Source: a virus
Taxonomy: Duplodnaviria > Heunggongvirae > Uroviricota > Caudoviricetes
IMG/VR virus record: IMGVR_UViG_3300023214_000389
Strand: one strand, 5' to 3'
DNA length: 17,570 nucleotides
The notes below the pieces were generated by a model. That model was not told the DNA's origin and made no database searches. It saw only the letters and a list, made by a program, of their open reading frames with translations. Shown piece after piece: positions 2,857 through 11,944 of this stretch. Made by a program: the position numbers and the translations under genes. The first letter of the stretch is position 1, and every line of letters starts with the position of its first letter.

Positions 2857-3495
2857 ATGAATAGATTTCTTATCACAGCTTGTGGCCGGTCCGGCACTAA
2901 ATTTTTAGCTGATCTTATGAATCAGTCTAAAATATGGACGGTAAACCATGAACCCGATGCTCAATGGTATCAGAGAAAAAGAATTACACAAGAAACAAGA
3001 CCTCTATTACAACTAGCTTCTTACAGTAGATTCGCTAATACTATTTACTATGGAGAAGTTAATAGTTTAATGAGGCTTCTTATAATACCAAAAAAAAATT
3101 CTAATGTAAAAAGAGTTAATGATTTTCCTGTTGATAAAAAGGGTATAATTCTTAGGAACCCTTACGAACTTTTTTTATCTACTATAAACAGACGAAATTC
3201 AGAAAAGTGGGATGAGTGCCTTTATAATCTTGAAAACGATCTTGATATTATTGAATGGTGTGTAAAGCAAAAATTTAGGAAAATACGATTCAGTAAAATG
3301 GTATCAGATACTGTATACACTCAAGAACTATTAAGAGATTTTGGTATTAATGATGTTGAGATAACTTCTAAAATGTTACAAGTTAAGAAGAACCATACAG
3401 AAGAAAAAATAGTAACTATAGATGATCTTAACTCCACGCAGAAGGGGATTTTGAATTCGATAAGCTCAAGATTTTTAGAGAGACACGAAGTATGA
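2857..3495 (+). CDS. PAPS-dependent sulfotransferase-like protein
   Basis: N-terminal ITACGRSGTKFL (5'-phosphosulfate-binding RSGT loop), then HEP, and IILRNPYELFLS (3'-phosphate-binding R-x-P...S). Confidence 0.7.
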   Translation: MNRFLITACGRSGTKFLADLMNQSKIWTVNHEPDAQWYQRKRITQETRPLLQLASYSRFANTIYYGEVNSLMRLLIIPKKNSNVKRVNDFPVDKKGIILRNPYELFLSTINRRNSEKWDECLYNLENDLDIIEWCVKQKFRKIRFSKMVSDTVYTQELLRDFGINDVEITSKMLQVKKNHTEEKIVTIDDLNSTQKGILNSISSRFLERHEV

Positions 3496-4289
3496 AGATT
3501 TTATATGCTGGTCCATGGGCAGGGGAATTTGGCTGGGAGCTTTGTTCGTGGAACCCTAGAATTCGCAAGCTAGCAGAGGGCTACAATCGAGTTATTGTAG
3601 AAGGACCATCTACATCAGAATATTTGTATGAATTTGCTGACGAATATATTATTAACAATACAAAACCTAATACTTCAGATGGTTATAAAGGAGAGACTAC
3701 AAAGTCTGCTGGATCGAGAGAAAATGCTACTATAGTTCGACCAAACTGGGAACTTATGGGTAAGCCAGAGATGAAACTTCTCAAAGGCTCTTATCAGGCT
3801 AACTCAGAGAAAAAATGGCGCTGTTTAGCTCCAGAAAATCCCATTGAAGTAGCAGAAGTTCTATGTTCTTTTCGCCCAGTGAAAAGATATCGTGGCAGGG
3901 TCTTAAACGACAAAGAGTATCCTAAAAAATTATGCACTCAGTTGGTAGGGGAACTAATGATTAGAGGATTCTCTGTAGCATGCATCGGAGGGTCCTCTAA
4001 TTACTATATCCCTGGAACTATTGACCTTCGAGGCAAGCCTCTCGAAGAACAATGCAGTGCAATAGCGGCGAGCAAGGTTGTGCTTGGGCCTAGTAGTGGG
4101 CCATTGCACCTAGCCGCTCTATGCAATACTCCTCATGTTGTGTGGTACAACAGACCCAATCAAGTTACTTCCTACGCCCGCTACCGAGACCATTGGAACC
4201 CATTTAACACTCCCCACACCTACCTAAAGCAGCAAATTCCTACACCTCAGCAGATTGCGGACGCGGCATCGGAGTACGGAAATGCTTAG
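3492..4289 (+). CDS. Divergent GT-B glycosyltransferase, GT9 (heptosyltransferase)-like
   Basis: The C-terminal IDLRGKPLEEQCSAIAASKVVLGPSSGPLHLAALCNTPHVV matches the GT9 D/S-SG-x-x-H-L-A motif. The N-terminus (GPWAGEFGWEL) is atypical. Confidence 0.65.
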   Translation: MKILYAGPWAGEFGWELCSWNPRIRKLAEGYNRVIVEGPSTSEYLYEFADEYIINNTKPNTSDGYKGETTKSAGSRENATIVRPNWELMGKPEMKLLKGSYQANSEKKWRCLAPENPIEVAEVLCSFRPVKRYRGRVLNDKEYPKKLCTQLVGELMIRGFSVACIGGSSNYYIPGTIDLRGKPLEEQCSAIAASKVVLGPSSGPLHLAALCNTPHVVWYNRPNQVTSYARYRDHWNPFNTPHTYLKQQIPTPQQIADAASEYGNA

Positions 4290-4779
4290 CTTAAACGTAG
4301 GATGCGGAACTGATTACAGAGAGGGTTTCGTCAATATAGACGGTAGTGATGTTTTACCGCGCGTGGACCAAGTGATAGATTTCAACTCAGCTAAGCTCAG
4401 TGATCACTTCGGAGAGATTGACCACATTCTATGCAATGACTTCATAGAGCATTTCTTTCACTGGGAGGCTGTATCTTTGCTAGAAGATTTCTACAGAGTT
4501 CTACGAGGAGGAGGTACCTTAGAGTTGCGGGTTCCTGATAGCGAGTGGATTATCAACTCTGACAAACCTACAGAGTGGAAACTTCGTCAGATGTACGGGG
4601 GACAAGATCTTTATCAAGGCAAGATGGATTTTTCTAGAGAAGAATACCCTCAATTCTTCTGCCATAAATATGGATGGACTAGAGAAAGGATTCGTAAGGA
4701 TCTAGAGAATATTGGCTTTCGAAACCTTAGATTTGAACAAGTTAATGCCAATTTCGTGACGCACGGAAGAAAGCCATGA
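4282..4779 (+). CDS. Class I SAM-dependent methyltransferase
   Basis: LNVGCG motif I, FVNID, and IEH...FYRVLRGGGTL. Start moved from 4255 to the ATG at 4282, which follows GGAG and overlaps the upstream stop. Confidence 0.8.
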   Translation: MLSLNVGCGTDYREGFVNIDGSDVLPRVDQVIDFNSAKLSDHFGEIDHILCNDFIEHFFHWEAVSLLEDFYRVLRGGGTLELRVPDSEWIINSDKPTEWKLRQMYGGQDLYQGKMDFSREEYPQFFCHKYGWTRERIRKDLENIGFRNLRFEQVNANFVTHGRKP

Positions 4780-5552
4780 AGATTTATCCCGATCTACACG
4801 ATGGTATTGTTCGCATTCGTAACAATAATGTCTGCCTAGCCCGAGGGTTCCTACAACATAAGGGTTTCTTCGATAAGGTGGTAGAAAAAGTACAGCAAGT
4901 TGCTAGATATAAAGCTGGATGTAGGGTAGAGTGGCCGTTCGAGAAGATTCACGAGCACATATCTGCGGAGAAAATAAAACTTCTGTGTACCAATCTTGCC
5001 AGAGAGTCAGGACCTAACTCTCTGCGGATGATGATGGCCAAATTTACCCACGATGTAGTAAGGGAAGATCTAGGAGTCACAAACAAGTTCTGGCTAGACT
5101 TCCAGCCTGTGGTGCGCTTCTACACACCTCATGACTTCTGGGTAGCAAACAAAAGTCAACTAAATCTTGGGGGTCACCTCAGAATACAGGGGCCTCATCA
5201 CGATACTTGGTTCGGTCACGCAACCGAGGGCATGAATCTATGGATGGCTATAGGCCCTGTCCGGCCCGGCAATGGTCTATCTTTGTACCCCGAAGCTACC
5301 GAATCAGGGTATATTAACCACGATGGGAATTACGGTATGCCTCGTGACCAGAAGCTTGGCATTCCTGTAAACTTTAACATGGATCCGGGAGATATGCTTC
5401 TCTTCCATGGAGAAACAGTTCATTCGTCAGAGTTGAATCAAACACAAGATACTCGTTTTGTTTTGACCACGAGATTTTCGCTAGTCCCTCCTGTTTTTAA
5501 AAAGGGTGCTCACGGTGGTAACAGTCCGTGGATCACATCGGAGGAAATATGA
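4776..5552 (+). CDS. Fe(II)/2-oxoglutarate dioxygenase, PhyH-like
   Basis: HxD in PHHDTW, NLWMAI strand, GDMLLFH, distal His in TVHSS, and a putative 2OG-binding Arg 11 residues later (DTRF). Confidence 0.8.
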   Translation: MKIYPDLHDGIVRIRNNNVCLARGFLQHKGFFDKVVEKVQQVARYKAGCRVEWPFEKIHEHISAEKIKLLCTNLARESGPNSLRMMMAKFTHDVVREDLGVTNKFWLDFQPVVRFYTPHDFWVANKSQLNLGGHLRIQGPHHDTWFGHATEGMNLWMAIGPVRPGNGLSLYPEATESGYINHDGNYGMPRDQKLGIPVNFNMDPGDMLLFHGETVHSSELNQTQDTRFVLTTRFSLVPPVFKKGAHGGNSPWITSEEI

Positions 5553-5794
5553 GCGAGATCAAGGTCGTAAAGTCTGGAATCATCTCCGTAGAGATCGAAG
5601 GTGAGGTACATTACTTATCTAGATACTGTACTCATGAGGGTGCTGATTTGTCTCTCGGGTATTTGGACGAATATGGTTGTCTTCGGTGCCCGTGGCACAA
5701 TCTAGCGTTCGATAAGGATGGAAAGCAAATTTGCAAGAGCCTAAAGAATTTGAAGAAATATCGAAAAGAGGGTGACGAATATGTGGTTGATTAA
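5549..5794 (+). CDS. Small Rieske [2Fe-2S] ferredoxin-like protein
   Basis: CTH...CPWH Rieske ligands. Start taken at the ATG at 5549 (GGAGG RBS, ATGA overlap with the dioxygenase stop). Confidence 0.9.
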   Translation: MSEIKVVKSGIISVEIEGEVHYLSRYCTHEGADLSLGYLDEYGCLRCPWHNLAFDKDGKQICKSLKNLKKYRKEGDEYVVD

Positions 5795-6731
5795 TACCTC
5801 TTACGGGTGGAACCCCGGAGATGACCTAATTAGGGAGGGGGTATTCAATCTCTTAAGGTTAAGCCAAGTTACTCCCAAGGTTTTTGTTAATAGAGGGCAG
5901 ACAAAGGTAAATGATAAAACTGTTCCTATCTGGAAGATTCTTCGTAATTTCGAGTCTACGGAACATCTGGTATCTCAAGCAACAGGCATAATTATGGCAG
6001 GAAGTCCGGAATGGGTAGATTTCTTTGAAGATTTCTATATACAAGCGTCTGCATACAATGTTCCAATATACATGGTTGGTATTGGGATGAGATCGGTATC
6101 TAAAGATGCTAACAATCTAGTAAACAGTGTTAAACACTTGATAAAAGGGGCCACTGTAAGGGATAAACATGCTTCTGCTGCTCTAAAAAGTTGCGGAATT
6201 GAGTCTCAATGGTTTCCTGATCCAGCTTTCTCTGCATCGTATACCATTCCTACATCGAAACGTTACGGGTTGGTTGTTAATTATAGATCTCATGGAGGTA
6301 ACGGGACATTCAAGGATACTTATGATGATAAATGGAGAGAAATAGCTAAAAAATATGAAAGCGATATAGAGATTGTAACAGTGCATGAACAAGGTGAATA
6401 CAAAAAAGCAAAAAAGATTTTTAGTTCTCCTGTTTTCTATAGTTCTGATTACACAGATTACAAGTACATATACTCTAACACAAAGTTATACATAGGAGGA
6501 AGAATTCACGGGGCTACACCTGTTTTGTCTACAGGAGGTACAGCTTACTTGATTTACAATTCTCCTAAAATAGATGCTCTTCAGAAAGTATCTAAATTTA
6601 TGGATACTTTAAAAGTGTTGAACTTTAATTCCCCAGTACCCGATATAAGTTACATAGATTCTACATTGGCTATTAAAAGACTTCAAGAATACATTCAACA
6701 ACACAAGAGATATTGGGAACTTCGTTTATGA
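5781..6731 (+). CDS. Polysaccharide pyruvyl transferase family protein
   Basis: WNPGDDLI (NxGD), TVRD..S, PDPAF and GGRIHG motifs in family order. Start taken at the ATG at 5781. Confidence 0.8.
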   Translation: MWLINTSYGWNPGDDLIREGVFNLLRLSQVTPKVFVNRGQTKVNDKTVPIWKILRNFESTEHLVSQATGIIMAGSPEWVDFFEDFYIQASAYNVPIYMVGIGMRSVSKDANNLVNSVKHLIKGATVRDKHASAALKSCGIESQWFPDPAFSASYTIPTSKRYGLVVNYRSHGGNGTFKDTYDDKWREIAKKYESDIEIVTVHEQGEYKKAKKIFSSPVFYSSDYTDYKYIYSNTKLYIGGRIHGATPVLSTGGTAYLIYNSPKIDALQKVSKFMDTLKVLNFNSPVPDISYIDSTLAIKRLQEYIQQHKRYWELRL

Positions 6732-7648
6732 AATTTCTCTTGCTTTGTTCTTCAAACCCCATTGGGACTGCATTTGGGATGCAGCACGGCCTAAAACAAG
6801 GAGGGCACGTAGCTGATATGTTCTTTGCAGATAAGTGGAAAGCAAGAGAAATTATTTCAATGTCTGATAGATACGACAGTATAATTGTGTGTAAGGGTAC
6901 CATGATTAGGAACTTAGATGAATACCAAATGGTATTTAGTAAAGTTGCAGATTCAACTTACTTCATCCCTGATGTGGTTAATAGGGGCAAAAGAGCAGAT
7001 TCAGTAGGACCTAGAGGTATGATTTGTACTCGAATAGTATGCACTGGCACGGAAGCGGCCAAGTGGTATAGGGATAATGGCTATTCTGGTAGAATAGCAC
7101 AAATATATCAAGGATACAGGCCACATATATGGCAGCCAGGAGAGGGTCCGGGAGGCACGCAAGATAGAGTATCTTTTTTGGGGTCTTTCTACAAAGATGA
7201 CGGAGGCAGAGAATTCAAGTTAAAATCACTCCAAAATAAAGGCTATAAGATCTTAGTACGGAATAATATTTTTCATAAAGAAGCAGCTAGTATTTATTGG
7301 ACTAGCGCTATAAATATAAATTTTTCTGCCTGGGATTGCACCTCTAACAGAGCTATTAGAGTGATGGCATCTGGGGGCTTTCTTTTAACAGAATGGAACA
7401 GAGATATTGAAGCTACATTTGAACCCGGAAACCAATTGGACTGGTTTAAAACAGAGAAAGAAATGCAAGAAAAGGTTAAATTTTATATTAATAATCCAGA
7501 TGTAAGGAGAAAAATAGCGAAAAGAGGAAGAGATTGGGCTAAAGAAAGAGACTGGACATCGCAAATGAACAAAATTGTAAAATTCATCCAAGGGGAAGAA
7601 GATTTTTGTGATGGAGATGCTAGGGAGTATACTAGTGAAACATTATGA
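6728..7648 (+). CDS. CgeB-like (Glyco_trans_1_2) GT-B glycosyltransferase, paralogue 1
   Basis: FLGS, SAININF, SNRAIRVMASGGFLLTE, and FEPGNQL...YINNPDVRRKIAKRG, a typical CgeB-family C-terminus. ATGA overlap at 6728-6731. Confidence 0.8.
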   Translation: MKFLLLCSSNPIGTAFGMQHGLKQGGHVADMFFADKWKAREIISMSDRYDSIIVCKGTMIRNLDEYQMVFSKVADSTYFIPDVVNRGKRADSVGPRGMICTRIVCTGTEAAKWYRDNGYSGRIAQIYQGYRPHIWQPGEGPGGTQDRVSFLGSFYKDDGGREFKLKSLQNKGYKILVRNNIFHKEAASIYWTSAININFSAWDCTSNRAIRVMASGGFLLTEWNRDIEATFEPGNQLDWFKTEKEMQEKVKFYINNPDVRRKIAKRGRDWAKERDWTSQMNKIVKFIQGEEDFCDGDAREYTSETL

Positions 7649-8228
7649 ACCAAGAAAATACTGGCCCGAAAGACTAAAAAAGCAGGGAAAAAATTATGTT
7701 GCCTGGAGAAACGAGGCTAAAGCTTTTAGCAAGCAAGAAAGAGTATTCTGGAATGCTATACAACCATTGCTTCCATCAGGCGGACGTGTTTTGGATTTTG
7801 GGTGTGGGGTGGGTAGGTTTACAACTGTAATATCTTCAATAGTAGATCAATACGACGGAGTTGATCTGAATAAAGAAGCTCTAGAGTTTGCGCCTTCTGT
7901 AGATAATGCGACATTTACATACCTTCTAGAAGATAATTTGCCATTTGATGAAAATACTTTTGATGGGGCATTAGCTTTAACTGTTTTGCAACACATAGTA
8001 GATCCCCAATCATTTGAACTTTGGACGAATGAACTAGCTAGAGTAATAAAGCCGGGAGGGTTTTTTATAGGTATCGAAACTCCTTCTCTCAAGGTAAAGC
8101 CAGCTCCTCACATGAGGTGGAGAACTTCAAAAATTATTGCCGAAGCCCTAGGAGGGCGTGTAGAAACGGTTCACAATATTTCTGCTGAGTTTCAAAATTC
8201 CCATTATTGTTTTCTAGCTAGATTGTAA
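7635..8228 (+). CDS. Class I SAM-dependent methyltransferase
   Basis: N-terminal YWxxR, VLDFGCGVGRF, YDGVD, LPFDENTFD and LARVIKPGG. GTG start at 7635, 7 nt after AGGGAG. Confidence 0.88.
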   Translation: MKHYEPRKYWPERLKKQGKNYVAWRNEAKAFSKQERVFWNAIQPLLPSGGRVLDFGCGVGRFTTVISSIVDQYDGVDLNKEALEFAPSVDNATFTYLLEDNLPFDENTFDGALALTVLQHIVDPQSFELWTNELARVIKPGGFFIGIETPSLKVKPAPHMRWRTSKIIAEALGGRVETVHNISAEFQNSHYCFLARL

Positions 8229-8237
8229 GAAGTAATA

Positions 8238-9212
8238 ATGAAAATCGCTTGGCTTACGAAATTTAAAGGGATAGAGTCCACTAATGTTGGCATGATAGCT
8301 GCTTTGGAAGAACTAGGTCACCAAGTAATGGTTACCAATTCTCAGAAGTATGCTACCAGGGGACACCATGAAGAGGCTTTAAGGTCGTTCTTAGAGGATT
8401 GCCAAAAAGCAGATGCATGCGTAGTTACCAAGGGGAATTGGATTCCTAAAAATAGATTTCAATGGTTAGCTAATCAAGTTGATTTAACTATGTTTATCCC
8501 GGACTCTATAAGTGTTGGGCCCCCTGGTAGAGATATCGAACACGGACATAGGGCTCTAATGTGTAATAGAGTTATACTTACTGGAACTGAAGGGGCTAGG
8601 TGGTTAAGAGAAAACGGATATAGAAATAGGATAGCTCAGATTTATCAAGGATATCGCCCCGATGTATGGAGAAGAAAAGAAAAGTACACTACTAACACTC
8701 AGATCGTGTTTTTAGGAAGTGTGTACAAAGGGGATGGAAATAGAAGAGCAAAAATGAATGCCATAACTAGAGCTGGCTTTACAATGCATTACCATCGTAG
8801 AACTTTTATGGAGAAGGCAGCTAAACTGTACTACAATACTCCTATATCAATTAATTTTAATTGTGGGGATATAACGTCAAATAGAGTTATGAGAATTATG
8901 GCATCTAGGGGATTCTGTTTATCACAATCCAATGCAGATATCAAACACTCTTTCAGCAATGGAACTGAACTGGCGTGGTGGGATGAACCAGAAGGGGACA
9001 GCATAAGCGAAAAAGCTATGCTAGATTCCATAAGGTATTGGCTAGATCATGAAAACGCTAGAAACCTAGTAGCAGAAACAGGATACGAGTGGGCTAAAAA
9101 TAAGACTTGGGTGGACCAAATGGAAAAGCATATAAGATTCATCCAGGGAGAAATAGTACCTGCGGACGGGGCAGCTAGTCCTTATGTCGAAGACCAGAAT
9201 ACTCCTAACTAG
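8238..9212 (+). CDS. CgeB-like GT-B glycosyltransferase, paralogue 2
   Basis: Shares FIPD, TGTE, RIAQIYQGYRP, FLGSxYKxDGxR, TSNRxxRxMASxGF and FIQGE with 6728-7648. Confidence 0.8.
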   Translation: MKIAWLTKFKGIESTNVGMIAALEELGHQVMVTNSQKYATRGHHEEALRSFLEDCQKADACVVTKGNWIPKNRFQWLANQVDLTMFIPDSISVGPPGRDIEHGHRALMCNRVILTGTEGARWLRENGYRNRIAQIYQGYRPDVWRRKEKYTTNTQIVFLGSVYKGDGNRRAKMNAITRAGFTMHYHRRTFMEKAAKLYYNTPISINFNCGDITSNRVMRIMASRGFCLSQSNADIKHSFSNGTELAWWDEPEGDSISEKAMLDSIRYWLDHENARNLVAETGYEWAKNKTWVDQMEKHIRFIQGEIVPADGAASPYVEDQNTPN

Positions 9213-9984
9213 GCTAGGCGGAGCTGGCGATATGATAATGACGGAACCTGTACTACAGGCTCTTTATGATAAATATTATCCATGTCACATAACTTATAGA
9301 ACCCACAGACATTATTATGATTTACTTTTGTTTCATCCTTTGATAGATGAAATTTTATGTACTAGAACAGGATGCTGGACCCCCACACCTGAGGGGTATG
9401 ATATCCATGTAAATTTACATGAAGTTATAGAGAAAGCACCTTTTGGGGTTCATGGAATTGACGCTTTTGCGTTAGCAGCCGGAGTAAAGCTACCCAGAAG
9501 GATACCCAGATTGGCATTAGACGGCGTGAGTCGCCGCGTGAGGACAGAAGACGATAGGTACCCCGTGGTAACCCACCCTCCTGTAAAAATACCCCCAAAA
9601 AGCGATATATCTTTTCACATTCCTCACGAAACGAGAAATCTATCTTGGAAAGATGGAATGGGTGTTTTGAAAAAGTTTATGGATTACTTTAATTCTCGGG
9701 GGGAAAAACCTTCCATTAGACTGGTGGGACAAGACCCTATGGAGCCCGGAAAAAGTCATATGTTAAAAATGGCTTGGGAGATAAAACAATCAAAAATGTT
9801 TGTTGGGCCCGACAGTGGGGGGTTTCATATATCTGTTGCCTTAGACGTTCCCACCATAGTTTCTTTGACTTCGAAGTTTCCAGCTTCCATGAGAGGTTAC
9901 TCTAAAGCAGTAGCTGTAGAAGATGATTTGAACCAAGTGTTCCCCACGGCATTGGCGCTATATAGAAAGATTAAAAATGGGTAG
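9184..9984 (+). CDS. GT9-family glycosyltransferase-like protein
   Basis: N-terminal LLTRLGGAGDMIMTEPVLQAL and C-terminal FVGPDSGGFHISVALDVPTI. Confidence 0.8.
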   Translation: MSKTRILLTRLGGAGDMIMTEPVLQALYDKYYPCHITYRTHRHYYDLLLFHPLIDEILCTRTGCWTPTPEGYDIHVNLHEVIEKAPFGVHGIDAFALAAGVKLPRRIPRLALDGVSRRVRTEDDRYPVVTHPPVKIPPKSDISFHIPHETRNLSWKDGMGVLKKFMDYFNSRGEKPSIRLVGQDPMEPGKSHMLKMAWEIKQSKMFVGPDSGGFHISVALDVPTIVSLTSKFPASMRGYSKAVAVEDDLNQVFPTALALYRKIKNG

Positions 9985-10918
9985 AGTTATACGACCTTCT
10001 CCAGGGAATCCAGTGCAACCTCCTTCATCTAATAAGGCTACTATCCCTACGTCCGGAATACCTCCATTTGATGCTGAAGAATATTTCAAAAATTATGATC
10101 ACGAGGCTGTTTGGGATCTATCTTCTCGTACTATGATTACTCCGGCTTGTTACAACAGAAAAGAGACAGTTAAGCATTGTGTTGGCGCGACAAACAGATA
10201 CAAATTGGGGGCAAAAGTATACATCCATGATGACGGTTCAGACGAATATGATGTAGAATGGTTAAGCCAATTCGGAGATAGGGTTTTTAGGCATCCCCGC
10301 AGTGAAGGTGGAAGGAAAGGTGTAAAGAACATTCGATCTAATATCACCAAAAGTGTTTTAGGGGAATTTGAACCGGATATATTTCTAGAATGGATAAAGC
10401 AGGATTATGGGACAGACGGCCCCGAATACCTGTACCACGTAGATAGTGATGGGTACCACGATCCGCACTTCTTCTACAGGATTCACGAAATAATGAATCT
10501 ATATCCAAACTGGGGAGTAATTTGTCTGTACAATGCTAAATTCCACTCCCCTAGAAGGAACAAATCAGAAAATAATGTCATAAATTACCATACAGTGGTA
10601 AGAGGGATGTCCGCTGGCATATCTATGTTTTTTCGAGTAGAAAGTTTTAGAAAAAATCCAAAGTATGTTCAGGTCCCTGATGGAAGAGGGTGGGATGGGT
10701 TTTACTCTCAGACCATAGGAAATCGTAGAGTTGTTACATCTTTGGTCAGCTATGTTGAACATTTTGGTAAGTGGGGATTCCATAACAAAGGTAGTTTTGA
10801 TAGAGACAGAGCTTTAAATCCTACTTCTTACTTGGCTAGCATTCGGGGTGATGTTATTCGCGATATTGAAGAACAATTTAATTTAACTCAAAATGAGTCC
10901 AAGGTTTTGGAAAAATAG
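9977..10918 (+). CDS. GT2-family (GT-A) glycosyltransferase with a Pro-rich N-terminal extension
   Basis: ITPACYNR, IHDDGS and YHVDSD (DxD) motifs. Confidence 0.8.
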   Translation: MGRVIRPSPGNPVQPPSSNKATIPTSGIPPFDAEEYFKNYDHEAVWDLSSRTMITPACYNRKETVKHCVGATNRYKLGAKVYIHDDGSDEYDVEWLSQFGDRVFRHPRSEGGRKGVKNIRSNITKSVLGEFEPDIFLEWIKQDYGTDGPEYLYHVDSDGYHDPHFFYRIHEIMNLYPNWGVICLYNAKFHSPRRNKSENNVINYHTVVRGMSAGISMFFRVESFRKNPKYVQVPDGRGWDGFYSQTIGNRRVVTSLVSYVEHFGKWGFHNKGSFDRDRALNPTSYLASIRGDVIRDIEEQFNLTQNESKVLEK

Positions 10919-10926
10919 GAAAACAG

Positions 10927-11218
10927 ATGTCTATAGAGATAAAATATGTAGTGCAATATCGTAGGGAAGGTGATAAAAAGTGGATAGATTCCCACATCGA
11001 GGCTTTCCCCTTGAGACCAAGTAAAGCTTTGATAAATGATAAATGATGAATTCATGGAAACCGCTAGAGATCTAGTACACTACTCTTGGAAGGATGATAT
11101 TCCACATCTTAGGGGGGATTTTGAGGTAAGGGTGGTGAGAAGGGAGCTAATAAAGAAGGAGATCCCCCTCAAAGGGATTAAACGGTTCAAGAACAAAGAT
11201 ATAATTGCAGGCATATAA
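10927..11218 (+). pseudogene. Small hypothetical gene (94 aa if repaired) split into two frames by a 7-bp duplication
   Basis: ORF 10927-11046 (MSIEIKYVVQYRREGDKKWIDSHIEAFPLRPSKALINDK*, AGGA RBS) and ORF 11036-11218 overlap at TGATAAA-TGATAAA-TGAT. Deleting one unit joins them as ...ALINDEFMETARD... Confidence 0.65.
11030..11047 (+). repeat. 7-bp tandem duplication TGATAAA x2 (plus TGAT)
   Basis: Read directly from the sequence: TGATAAATGATAAATGAT. Confidence 0.85.
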
Positions 11219-11319
11219 TTGAAAGAACTACATCAAGAGGACAAACGGGAGCATACCAAAGGCCCTGGAAGCCCTGTGGAGCGAGGCTTGGAAAATATAT
11301 CCCGTCTCGGACTTTAGAA

Positions 11320-11432
11320 TGGCGGCGAGGGTTGGATTCGAACCCACGAGGATGAAGGTGCTGGTTTGACCGCCCTCCCCTTCTCCTACCGGCTTCTAAG
11401 GCCGGCGCAATAAGCCTCTCTGATACTCTAAA
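11320..11432 (-). tRNA. Aberrant tRNA or tRNA pseudogene: anticodon UAG (Leu), Ser-type body, 41-nt variable region, 5' acceptor strand not complementary
   Basis: On the minus strand: D-loop-like GAGAGGCTTA, anticodon arm CCGGC-CTTAGAA-GCCGG, long variable hairpin, T arm GTGGG-TTCGAAT-CCAAC (one mismatch), and 3' end CCTCGCC-G-CCA. The expected positions 1-7 (TTTAGAG) do not pair with the 3' strand. Confidence 0.75.
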
Positions 11433-11458
11433 AGAAATTAGAGGAAGAGTATTCGCAT

Positions 11459-11944
11459 ATGATTGAAAAAATTATCTCAGGAGGGCAAACAGGGGCAGAT
11501 CAAGGGGGCTTGGAAGCCGCTGTAGTATTGGGGATTGAAACAGGAGGAAAGGTTCCCAGAGGGTTTAAAACTGAAAAAGGGCCTCAACCAGAGTTGAGTA
11601 ATTTATATGGTCTAGAGGAATTATCTTCAGATGAGTACCCTCCTAGAACACGGTACAATATTTTAGATTCTGACGGAACGGTTATATTCGGGCTTGTTAG
11701 TTCAGTAGGCTCTCGTATGACTCGGGAAATGTGCAAACAAAATGGAAAACCTTGGTTAGTAATAGAATCGTTTGACGAGACTTATTTTCGTCTTTTTGGA
11801 GAATGGGTCTTGATAAACCAAATCAAAGTGCTAAATGTAGCCGGTAATCGGGAATCTAAGTCTCCCGGTATTCAAAACAAGGTACGAAACTTTTTAATAG
11901 AAGTAATAGGAGATGATGAAAGTGAAGTCGTTAAAAGATATTGA
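11459..11944 (+). CDS. Putative molybdenum-carrier-like / SLOG superfamily protein
   Basis: IISGGQTGAD, RTxxNxxDSDGT, GSxxT and LNVAGNRES signature motifs. Confidence 0.85.
   Translation: MIEKIISGGQTGADQGGLEAAVVLGIETGGKVPRGFKTEKGPQPELSNLYGLEELSSDEYPPRTRYNILDSDGTVIFGLVSSVGSRMTREMCKQNGKPWLVIESFDETYFRLFGEWVLINQIKVLNVAGNRESKSPGIQNKVRNFLIEVIGDDESEVVKRY

Follow-up and report, generated by a model that had tools for sequence, protein, structure and literature searches.

A compact, soluble, predicted glycan-building and glycan-tailoring cassette with a putative Rieske-coupled PhyH oxygenase in tailed phages

Clusters of glycan genes have been described for several groups of viruses. The fibril clusters of the Megavirinae (Mimivirus, Megavirus, Moumouvirus and Tupanvirus) unite glycosyltransferases (GTs) with transferases for pyruvyl and methyl groups and with sulfate genes (PMC9614988), the jumbo cyanophage P-SSM2 carries a 15-gene glycan cluster (Iyer et al., 2021, PMC7824862), and the mycobacteriophages Che8, Corndog and Myrna glycosylate their virions with phage GTs (Freeman et al., 2023, PMC10527164, as cited in PMC12619734). 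Phage glycan clusters are, as a kind, already known. Here we report on a stretch of 17,570 nt from the Caudoviricetes record IMGVR_UViG_3300023214_000389 of IMG/VR (hereafter "the window", meaning this whole stretch), in which 11 genes at positions 2857-10918 encode five GTs together with sulfate-, pyruvate-, methyl- and oxygen-adding enzymes. They form a coherent, conserved and soluble set in phages, the product of which may decorate the phage's own particle. Among the new features is that one phage cassette brings together sulfation, pyruvylation and a putatively Rieske-coupled PhyH oxygenase.

The giant-virus fibril clusters appear to be the nearest analogue in chemistry. They share with the window virus-encoded, soluble cytoplasmic GTs, a pyruvyl transferase (mg538), sugar methyltransferases and sulfate-metabolism genes (Ma457, Ma461, R499), and the Megavirinae also possess collagen-like proteins; L230 adds first a hydroxyl and then glucose to one of them (PMC9614988). 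However, these are eukaryotic giant viruses with a full nucleotide-sugar synthesis, of which the window has nothing and its closest relative, the 184-kb genome IMGVR_UViG_3300037755_000305 (G001; GC content 49%, about 69% complete), has one epimerase. Furthermore, the giant viruses lack a Rieske-coupled oxygenase and a demonstrated sulfotransferase product, and their glycan structures have been solved, whereas here the genes alone are at hand. Clusters of the P-SSM2 type are similar as large multi-GT clusters with epimerases, methyltransferases and 2-oxoglutarate (2OG) oxygenases in large myovirus genomes (PMC7824862), which are polymorphic between relatives and the function of which has been deduced from sequence. 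In contrast to the window, they are centred on nucleotide-sugar production (kinase, nucleotidyltransferase, epimerases) and have been read as host surface modification, and a term search of the text of PMC7824862 retrieved no sulfotransferase, pyruvyl transferase, CgeB-like GT or Rieske partner. The mycobacteriophage enzymes are described, in the same source as above, as soluble phage enzymes; acting in the cytoplasm, they attach sugars to capsid and tail-tube proteins of the phage itself and thereby shield the particle. No homology to them was found in tblastn searches with five cluster proteins against GenBank phages, which were essentially empty. The mycobacteriophage systems reportedly consist of one to a few GTs beside structural genes, plus an O-methyltransferase in Corndog, whereas the window has 11 enzymes, including those for sulfation, pyruvylation and oxygenation, among replication genes.

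The window contains 22 co-oriented open reading frames (ORFs) on the plus strand, 11 consecutive ones of which fill positions 2857-10918, and this set is also given by independent gene calls for the contig. When the best-supported starts are used, eight of the ten junctions overlap by 4-14 nt. A ninth, between the genes for CgeB2 and GT9b (see below), overlaps by 29 nt if GT9b starts at position 9184, a start with which the N-terminus (MSKTRILLTRLGGAGD) is again of the GT9 type and falls within an NCBIfam match to heptosyltransferase III. The sole non-overlapping junction is 8228/8238, with a gap of 9 nt. An initial annotation, made from the letters of the window, had listed 11 consecutive genes with nine of ten junctions overlapping, and had named two GT9-like, two CgeB-like and one GT2 enzyme, a sulfotransferase, a pyruvyltransferase, two methyltransferases, a 2OG dioxygenase and a Rieske protein. 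The layout was reproduced by the ORF list, the independent gene calls and the GT9b start at 9184, and the enzyme list by Pfam, motifs and structure models. A promoter and terminator scan yielded no usable operon boundary, and promoter-like sites were fewer than in shuffled sequences.

The first gene (2857..3495, 212 amino acids, aa) encodes a sulfotransferase of the 3'-phosphoadenosine 5'-phosphosulfate (PAPS) type, as judged from motifs and an AlphaFold2 (AF2) model, which belongs to a small, mostly viral family without a Pfam model. In 26 homologues, the six residues G10, R11, S12, G13, T14 and K15 of the 5'-phosphosulfate-binding loop GRSGTK are nearly invariant, and R100 and S108 of the 3'-phosphate-binding motif R100-x7-S108 are invariant. 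The AF2 model has a predicted local distance difference test (pLDDT) value of 88 and its best PDB matches are TPST2 (3ap3, E 5.7e-5), 3rnl, Teg14 and 2-OST, although these reach a TM-score of only about 0.5 and P-loop kinases rank close behind. The protein has no Pfam match even at E 10, and the family profile found no match among PDB sequences; two distant homologues carry PF00685 or PF13469. Three further enzymes would add methyl groups or pyruvate. The S-adenosylmethionine (SAM) methyltransferase MT1 (4282..4779, 165 aa) matches PF13489 (Methyltransf_23, E 9e-7) and has a GCG motif, and the SAM methyltransferase MT2 (7635..8228, 197 aa) matches PF08241 (Methyltransf_11, E 1.2e-14), with small-molecule and sugar O-methyltransferases as its PDB sequence matches. 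The polysaccharide pyruvyl transferase PyrT (5781..6731, 316 aa) matches PF04230 (PS_pyruv_trans, E 5e-18) with 66.4 bits at a cut-off of 25.3, covers positions 1-278 of the 280 of the profile and has a weak NCBIfam CsaB match. PDB sequence searches with PyrT, the GT2 enzyme and the PhyH enzyme gave nothing significant, and the cluster proteins had hardly any matches in PHROGs and NCBIfam.

Among the five GTs, the two GT9-like GT-B enzymes are the most divergent from their Pfam family. GT9a (3492..4289, 265 aa) has on its own no Pfam match above cut-off; its score for PF01075 is 13.6 bits and that of GT9b (9184..9984, 266 aa from the 9184 start; PF01075 sub-threshold, 8e-4) is 19.2 bits, both below the gathering cut-off of 22 bits. 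However, the GT9a family comprises at least 933 representative clusters at E<=1e-3, PF01075 is matched (E<=0.01) by 33 of 57 aligned members, and the PDB matches of the family profile are GT9 structures exclusively. The AF2 model of GT9a (pLDDT 95) has GT9 enzymes as its top 11 PDB hits (among them 1psw, 3tov, 2h1h and 4rb4), the best being WaaF, 3tov, WaaC and TibC; the GT9-like protein heptosyltransferase TibC matches about as well as WaaC and WaaF. With these enzymes of the lipopolysaccharide (LPS) core (WaaC, WaaF) and of autotransporter protein O-heptosylation (TibC/Aah), GT9a has in common the GT-B fold, the C-terminal donor-binding motif GPxSGxxH and the cytoplasmic location. GT9b carries NCBIfam motifs of heptosyltransferase III (N-terminal) and heptosyltransferase I (C-terminal), shares the DSGxxH motif region with the GT9a profile and has mostly viral neighbours in the ESM Atlas. 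The differences from GT9 heptosyltransferases are that GT9a and GT9b are about 60-140 residues shorter and stay below the Pfam cut-off, and that the N-terminal GEFGWE motif of GT9a departs from the GT9 consensus. The sequences suggest that the GT9-like family of the cassette is a short, phage-typical one that is new.

The two CgeB-like GT-B enzymes, CgeB1 (6728..7648, 306 aa, PF13524 Glyco_trans_1_2, E 1.7e-18) and CgeB2 (8238..9212, 324 aa, PF13524, E 1.3e-8), are paralogues with 36% identity and score above the cut-off of 25 with 67.4 and 35.3 bits. The namesake of PF13524, CgeB, is a putative threonine O-glycosyltransferase for Thr112 of CgeA in the spore crust of B. subtilis, acting in the mother-cell cytoplasm (PMC13577073). 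Like the window enzymes it is a soluble PF13524 protein, and it acts on a proteinaceous particle assembled in the cytoplasm. However, the resemblance does not go beyond the family (E 1e-18 and 1e-8 to the Pfam model), a CgeA homologue is lacking, and the activity of CgeB itself has been only weakly shown. The fifth enzyme, a GT2 (GT-A fold) glycosyltransferase (9977..10918, 313 aa) with a proline-rich N-terminus and the motifs DDG85 and DSD156, matches PF00535 marginally (24.3 bits, cut-off 23.3); its ESM Atlas neighbours are GT2 enzymes (feature score 0.98), with TM-scores of 0.68/0.83 to GT2 clusters.

The complete set is conserved in G001, which retains all 11 genes in the same order with 55-82% aa identity, including the flanking genes; the survey of synteny in IMG/VR that had been proposed together with the initial annotation thus recovered the full cluster. 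G001 has a longer form, also found on a 110-kb contig from a different sample, which additionally contains a Sulfotransfer_1 gene between PhyH and Rieske, a NAD epimerase/dehydratase, an MgtC-family gene inserted within the cluster (22093-22578; locus L001, 4137-4622) and a gene for a 772-aa protein with three LamG domains that overlaps the end of the GT2 gene. In the window, the GT2 gene is followed by a gap of 540 bp (10919-11458), the only ORF of which has 60 aa (11036-11218). Because the gene for the LamG protein occupies this very position in the long form, the gap may be a deletion scar. The GC content inside the operon is mosaic (sulfotransferase gene 31%; GT9a, MT1, PhyH and Rieske 43-46%; the remainder 37-42%), which suggests that the cassette has been put together from parts of differing origin.

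Most of the cassette also occurs in an unrelated phage context. The 23-kb contig L064 has a GC content of 70% and RcGTA-like tail genes (Phage_BR0599 and a 1210-aa Phage-tail_3/Rcc01698_C protein); immediately after these and two small ORFs, within 5 kb and near the contig end, it encodes a GT2-like enzyme and homologues of GT9a (39% identity), PhyH (44%), Rieske (54%), MT1 (49%), PyrT (32%), a CgeB-like GT (25%) and the sulfotransferase (41%, truncated where the contig ends). The identities range from 21 to 54%, and the gene order is nearly collinear. Since eight of the 11 families recur so compactly and nothing but cassette genes is common to L064 and G001, the sequences indicate a mobile, enzyme-only module that travels across unrelated phages, which is new. 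A 175-aa protein of L064 that had been considered an M15 peptidase was not confirmed by Pfam and was dropped. Smaller combinations are also found. The sulfotransferase is followed directly by GT9a at one further locus (L018) and lies less than 1 kb from it at another (L032), GT9a occurs together with CgeB, a carbamoyltransferase and TylF (L019), and a GT2, four sulfotransferases, a methyltransferase and a GT9 form an island (L017). On a 245-kb IMG/VR phage contig, an island contains an HldE-like ADP-heptose enzyme, GT17, GT2, methyltransferases and a cluster-type sulfotransferase; the HldE-like gene (L025, 4947-6377), a PfkB kinase plus cytidylyltransferase-like fusion, lies beside PrkA and DUF444. 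Domains of the GT9a family are fused elsewhere to GT2, GT8, GT64, GT92, FkbM- and GXM-type methyltransferases and a Sulfotransfer_2 domain. In 50,697 GenBank phage records, tblastn found no match for the sulfotransferase, PyrT and GT9a, and only a match of 28% coverage for CgeB1; an IMG/VR scan with the single PyrT protein found nothing, and literature searches on phage sulfotransferase clusters brought up nothing relevant. The view that so much tailoring chemistry would be unusual for a bacteriophage is in agreement with the lack of GenBank-phage matches for three of the enzymes, but has to be tempered by the 15-gene cluster of P-SSM2 and the analogous islands in uncultured phages.

A further part of the cassette is a pair of neighbouring genes for a PhyH-type Fe(II)/2OG dioxygenase (4776..5552, 258 aa; PF05721, E 3e-9, 37.8 bits at a cut-off of 22; 82% identical to its G001 orthologue) and a Rieske [2Fe-2S] protein (5549..5794, 81 aa; PF00355, E 2e-12, 47.1 bits at a cut-off of 20.3). 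In 14 homologues of the former the facial triad H141, D143 and H216 is invariant and R227 is conserved in at least 90%; the use of 2OG is predicted from the PhyH family and these residues. The ligands C27-T-H29 and C47-P-W-H50 of the Rieske protein are invariant in nine homologues. PhyH homologues with 39-41% identity are proteins of 380-430 aa with a C-terminal Rieske domain (P0190-P0197); in P0191, residues 21-255 align to the PhyH protein and residues 355-403 to the Rieske protein of the window, the latter with 49% identity. In seven of seven closer metagenomic loci (39-62% identity) a Rieske match follows PhyH, in the same protein or separately, and a pyruvyl transferase is nearby in four independent contexts (L064, L067, L069 and that of P0191). 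Overall, the fused form is seen on contigs that look cellular or are short and unclassified, and the phage contigs have the two proteins apart. In IMG/VR, a PhyH profile search retrieved G001 only. A complex model of the two proteins has a score of 0.88, compared to 0.00 for the best of three controls; by rough counts with our own alignments, 58 of 80 solved complexes and two of 110 mismatched pairs reach this mark. The runs agree in at least 98% of the contacts, and the pLDDT of the Rieske protein is at least 91. The modelled interface joins residues 29-33 and 46-53 of the Rieske protein, including the ligands H29, C47 and H50, with residues 139-140 and 217-222 of PhyH, which adjoin the iron ligands H141, D143 and H216; in this model H29 and H50 face PhyH residues 217-220, beside H216. 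The fusions in cellular homologues and the complex model, which supports binding but does not show it, therefore argue that the two proteins form one unit. The interface might resemble the Rieske-to-iron electron path of Rieske oxygenases, an inference from the model only. Literature searches on Rieske-PhyH pairing or fusions returned nothing relevant.

The wider distribution of this pair bears on one alternative, namely, that the cassette does not decorate a macromolecule but yields a small glycoconjugate, free or lipid-anchored, in the form of a sulfated and methylated oligosaccharide or glycolipid that serves as a signal, antibiotic or metabolite. The PhyH-Rieske pair occurs without recognisable GTs nearby in a phage-like contig of 52 kb and 32% GC (L062), and the fusion adjoins regulators in cellular-looking contigs. 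In addition, related islands contain carbamoyltransferases and TylF-type methyltransferases, which are typical of natural-product tailoring, the nearest solved relatives of MT2 are small-molecule methyltransferases, and a secondary-metabolite reading has been raised for a second cyanophage cluster (PMC7824862). However, the presence of five GTs without any aglycone-forming enzyme (polyketide synthase, non-ribosomal peptide synthetase, terpene enzyme or acyltransferase) in the window, the lack of an exporter, and the ties of the CgeB-like and pyruvyl transferase families to surface glycans make such a product improbable. As a separate observation, the 52-kb contig also contains a TnpB/Cas12f-like gene (L062, 3302-4405).

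The genes around the cluster are those of a phage. The cluster is preceded by an SF2 helicase, a patatin and PhoH and followed by cpYpsA, a DnaB-like helicase, a 5'-3' exonuclease and UvrD. The patatin-like phospholipase gene (E 7e-31) overlaps the PhoH gene (1294-2815) directly upstream of the cluster, and the pair is kept in the 184-kb and 110-kb relatives. The cpYpsA gene (11459-11944, E 6e-41), encoding a circularly permuted SLOG protein, is likewise kept in the relatives between the cluster and the DnaB helicase. With ARAGORN, no tRNA was detected in the window, which is part of a 66-kb Logan contig; the first gene of the cluster is also found on a 210-kb contig. Further upstream, the Logan contig encodes a dCMP deaminase fused to Endo VII, as well as an ATP-dependent ligase and MazG. 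The baseplate genes start about 4 kb beyond the window end, with a 1137-aa M23-peptidase protein followed by a gp5-like spike, the gene of which is about 7 kb downstream of the window end. G001 has PHROGs matches for TerL (phrog_17415, E 6e-143), a baseplate wedge, DNA polymerase and Dda helicase, while Pfam searches of G001 for Terminase_6N and the HK97 capsid gave nothing useful. The DnaB protein of the window is about 32% identical to that of jumbo phages, among them Vibrio GR7B, BcepSaruman and phiRSL1, and megablast of the entire window against GenBank phages found no match. TerL and the baseplate wedge in G001 and the spike on the window contig show that the cluster belongs to a large (jumbo-type) tailed phage. 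The phage context that had initially been proposed is thus confirmed, and the flanking helicases and exonuclease are in accord with the term "replication region", although this is a loose label, because baseplate genes begin only about 4 kb past the window and are interleaved on the same transcription strand.

The position among replication genes, together with the upstream dCMP deaminase, would also suit a hypermodification of DNA, in which the GTs add the decorated glycan to a modified base and thus protect the phage DNA from host nucleases. It has been reported that 5-hydroxymethylcytosine can be decorated with mono- to trisaccharides, heptose among the sugars, by phage GTs that are relatives of LPS enzymes (bioRxiv 10.1101/2023.12.21.572611), and the T4 beta-GT is found at rank 30 among the distant structural matches of GT9a. 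However, the known pathways, such as the phage DNA glycan-hypermodification biosynthetic gene clusters of Pyle et al., have as their hallmark either a cytosine methyltransferase together with a TET-like 5mYOX enzyme or a dCMP hydroxymethylase. These partners were not found in G001: there was no PF00145 or PF00303 match, with controls that worked, in this genome of limited completeness, and a search for Tet_JBP was also without match, with an uninformative control. The only thymidylate-synthase PHROG match (phrog_85) in G001 is interrupted by an HNH domain; this thymidylate-synthase-like gene with its HNH endonuclease domain (70318-72117; L010, 11418-13217) could contain an intein or an insertion. 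In addition, the dioxygenase is of the PhyH type and not of the TET/JBP type and is paired with a pyruvyl transferase in cellular genomes, and the unrelated L064 carries the cassette behind tail genes. To our knowledge, there is no precedent for sulfated or pyruvylated DNA glycans. The DNA acceptor, which had been named as the alternative in the initial annotation, is weakened by the missing C5-cytosine methyltransferase and ThyA-like hydroxymethylase and by the PhyH type of the dioxygenase, and we consider it very improbable.

None of the window proteins reaches the threshold of 1.6 in a 19-residue Kyte-Doolittle window, a crude test for transmembrane segments that is not equivalent to TMHMM or SignalP; the maximum within the cluster is 1.39. 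A Pfam scan of 21 ORFs of the window retrieved no Wzx, Wzy, Gtr or nucleotide-sugar synthase match. Neither the window nor the 184 kb of G001 contains an initiating phosphoglycosyltransferase, flippase, polymerase, ligase or ABC exporter, and the only G001 protein with at least three hydrophobic segments is MgtC. The locus therefore differs from serotype-converting Gtr and Wzx/Wzy-type loci, the membrane components of which were not found in either sequence. An ordinary bacterial LPS or capsule locus was rejected in view of the phage replication and baseplate flanks and the lack of export genes. These results bear out the earlier statement that transmembrane segments, Wzx/Wzy/GtrAB and nucleotide-sugar synthases are missing, and they support the proposal of a soluble, multi-enzyme pathway for building and tailoring a glycan in a phage, among replication genes. 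The attribute "all-cytoplasmic" holds insofar as transmembrane segments are lacking, but it is equally compatible with acceptors in host LPS or linked to undecaprenyl diphosphate (Und-PP), the enzymes of which are normally peripheral.

It could also be that the site of action is the cytoplasmic face of the inner membrane, with lipid-linked host precursors of the inner LPS core, the O-antigen (on Und-PP), the capsule or exopolysaccharide (EPS) as substrates, that MsbA, Wzx or ABC transporters of the host export the product, and that the altered surface blocks superinfection or the re-adsorption of progeny to debris. The solubility of the enzymes fits this remodelling of the host envelope equally well, because enzymes for the LPS core and Und-PP-linked glycans are normally without transmembrane segments. 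GT9 is the family of the LPS-core heptosyltransferases, with WaaF and WaaC among the top structural matches of GT9a, and members of PS_pyruv_trans modify polysaccharides. On a contig that looks cellular and has housekeeping genes nearby, cellular PhyH-Rieske homologues are found in the neighbourhood of a pyruvyl transferase and a PIG-L deacetylase. The sulfotransferase family is also present in genomes of Planctomycetota, Verrucomicrobiales and Gemmatimonadales; the Verrucomicrobiales context contains no polysaccharide locus, and there the homologue is followed by a 1430-aa protein with Ser/Thr kinase, STAND NTPase and FGE-sulfatase domains (L037, 10610-14902). Host surface modification is also the published reading of P-SSM2-type jumbo-phage clusters (PMC7824862). 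Co-transcription with replication genes would suit an early function, and in L064 the cassette lies after the tail genes near one end of the contig. Accessory genes of temperate phages are often placed after the tail genes near the genome end. However, the initiating, flipping, polymerising and ligating enzymes are missing from the window and G001, and where homologues occur in cells, the surrounding genes do not form classical O-antigen or capsule loci. Furthermore, the enzyme set is kept in phages with 40%, 49% and 70% GC, which probably have very different hosts, and this is hard to reconcile with a dependence on host-specific lipid-linked acceptors and exporters. In sum, we regard a target in the host envelope as possible but rather doubtful.

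In line with the initial annotation and on circumstantial grounds, we tentatively prefer a pathway that ends on the phage's own virion proteins, although our confidence in this acceptor stays somewhat short of even. The overlapping junctions, the synteny in G001, the compact cassette in L064, the fusions of GT9a domains and the PhyH-Rieske fusions all argue for a coherent pathway. In the infected cytoplasm, the cassette would use nucleotide sugars of the host, possibly including ADP-heptose as donor of the GT9-like enzymes, as well as PAPS, phosphoenolpyruvate and SAM. A lead on this donor is the HldE-like kinase/adenylyltransferase encoded in the 245-kb phage contig island with the cluster-type sulfotransferase. 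A short hetero-oligosaccharide of up to about five sugars would be assembled and capped with sulfate, a pyruvate ketal, O-methyl groups and a hydroxyl, so that an anionic and unusual glycan would result. The acceptor, which is the weakest step, would be the surface of the phage's own particle, most plausibly threonine-rich G-X-T collagen-like fibres, on which a CgeB-like enzyme may start O-glycosylation at threonine, as has been proposed for CgeB on CgeA of the spore crust. The coat might then serve as a shield or as an adhesion layer. G001 encodes five adjacent, Pfam-confirmed collagen-like proteins rich in GAT, GST, GPT and GNT triplets, and one collagen-like protein of 2024 aa has 248 G-X-T-type triplets. 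G-X-T repeats are the O-glycosylated motif of Bacillus BclA. The collagen-like proteins of G001 point to the virion as acceptor, as do the position of the cassette behind the tail host-specificity genes in L064 and, in the long form, the overlap between the LamG and GT2 genes. A protein acceptor is plausible also for a GT9-type enzyme, because TibC glycosylates protein. The fibril clusters of giant viruses and the glycosylated virions of mycobacteriophages likewise speak for the virion.

Several observations weigh against this acceptor. In the window lineage, the operon is located among genes for replication and nucleotide metabolism and not beside fibre genes, and the collagen-like genes of G001 are more than 75 kb away from the cassette; GT genes and structural genes are adjacent neither in the window nor in G001, while in L064 the cassette is next to tail genes. 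No candidate acceptor protein travels with the cassette between the lineages compared. The LamG protein is absent from the window, its contig pieces and the other loci checked and has no relative among GenBank phages, and it is thus no candidate for a general acceptor. Collagen-like fibres are common in phages without glycosyltransferases, and GT9 and PS_pyruv_trans enzymes natively act on lipid-linked glycans. A bolder version, in which the cassette is a portable "proteoglycan kit" that O-glycosylates threonine-rich collagen-like fibres and includes an oxygenase of an undescribed class, a double-stranded beta-helix (PhyH) iron enzyme fed with electrons by its own Rieske cluster, is speculative, and we would sooner doubt it than adopt it.

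Irrespective of the acceptor, the compact size of the cassette, the solubility of its enzymes and its apparent portability between hosts with 40-70% GC make it directly testable by heterologous expression. It is also a source of enzymes for glycoengineering, namely, the sulfotransferase, the pyruvyl transferase and the short GT9-like enzymes, and the PhyH-Rieske unit points to an unstudied electron supply for a 2OG-type iron enzyme. If the target is host LPS or EPS, the cassette would represent an unusually elaborate surface-conversion system for a lytic-type jumbo phage. If, as we tentatively prefer, a virion coat is made, tailed phages would join the giant viruses and the mycobacteriophages in building their own glycan coat, and the sulfate and pyruvate charges of this coat could govern adsorption, adherence to mucus or EPS, and recognition by grazers or immune systems. 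Should the version with the "proteoglycan kit" be true, there would be bacterial viruses with an anionic, giant-virus-like or mucin-like coat.

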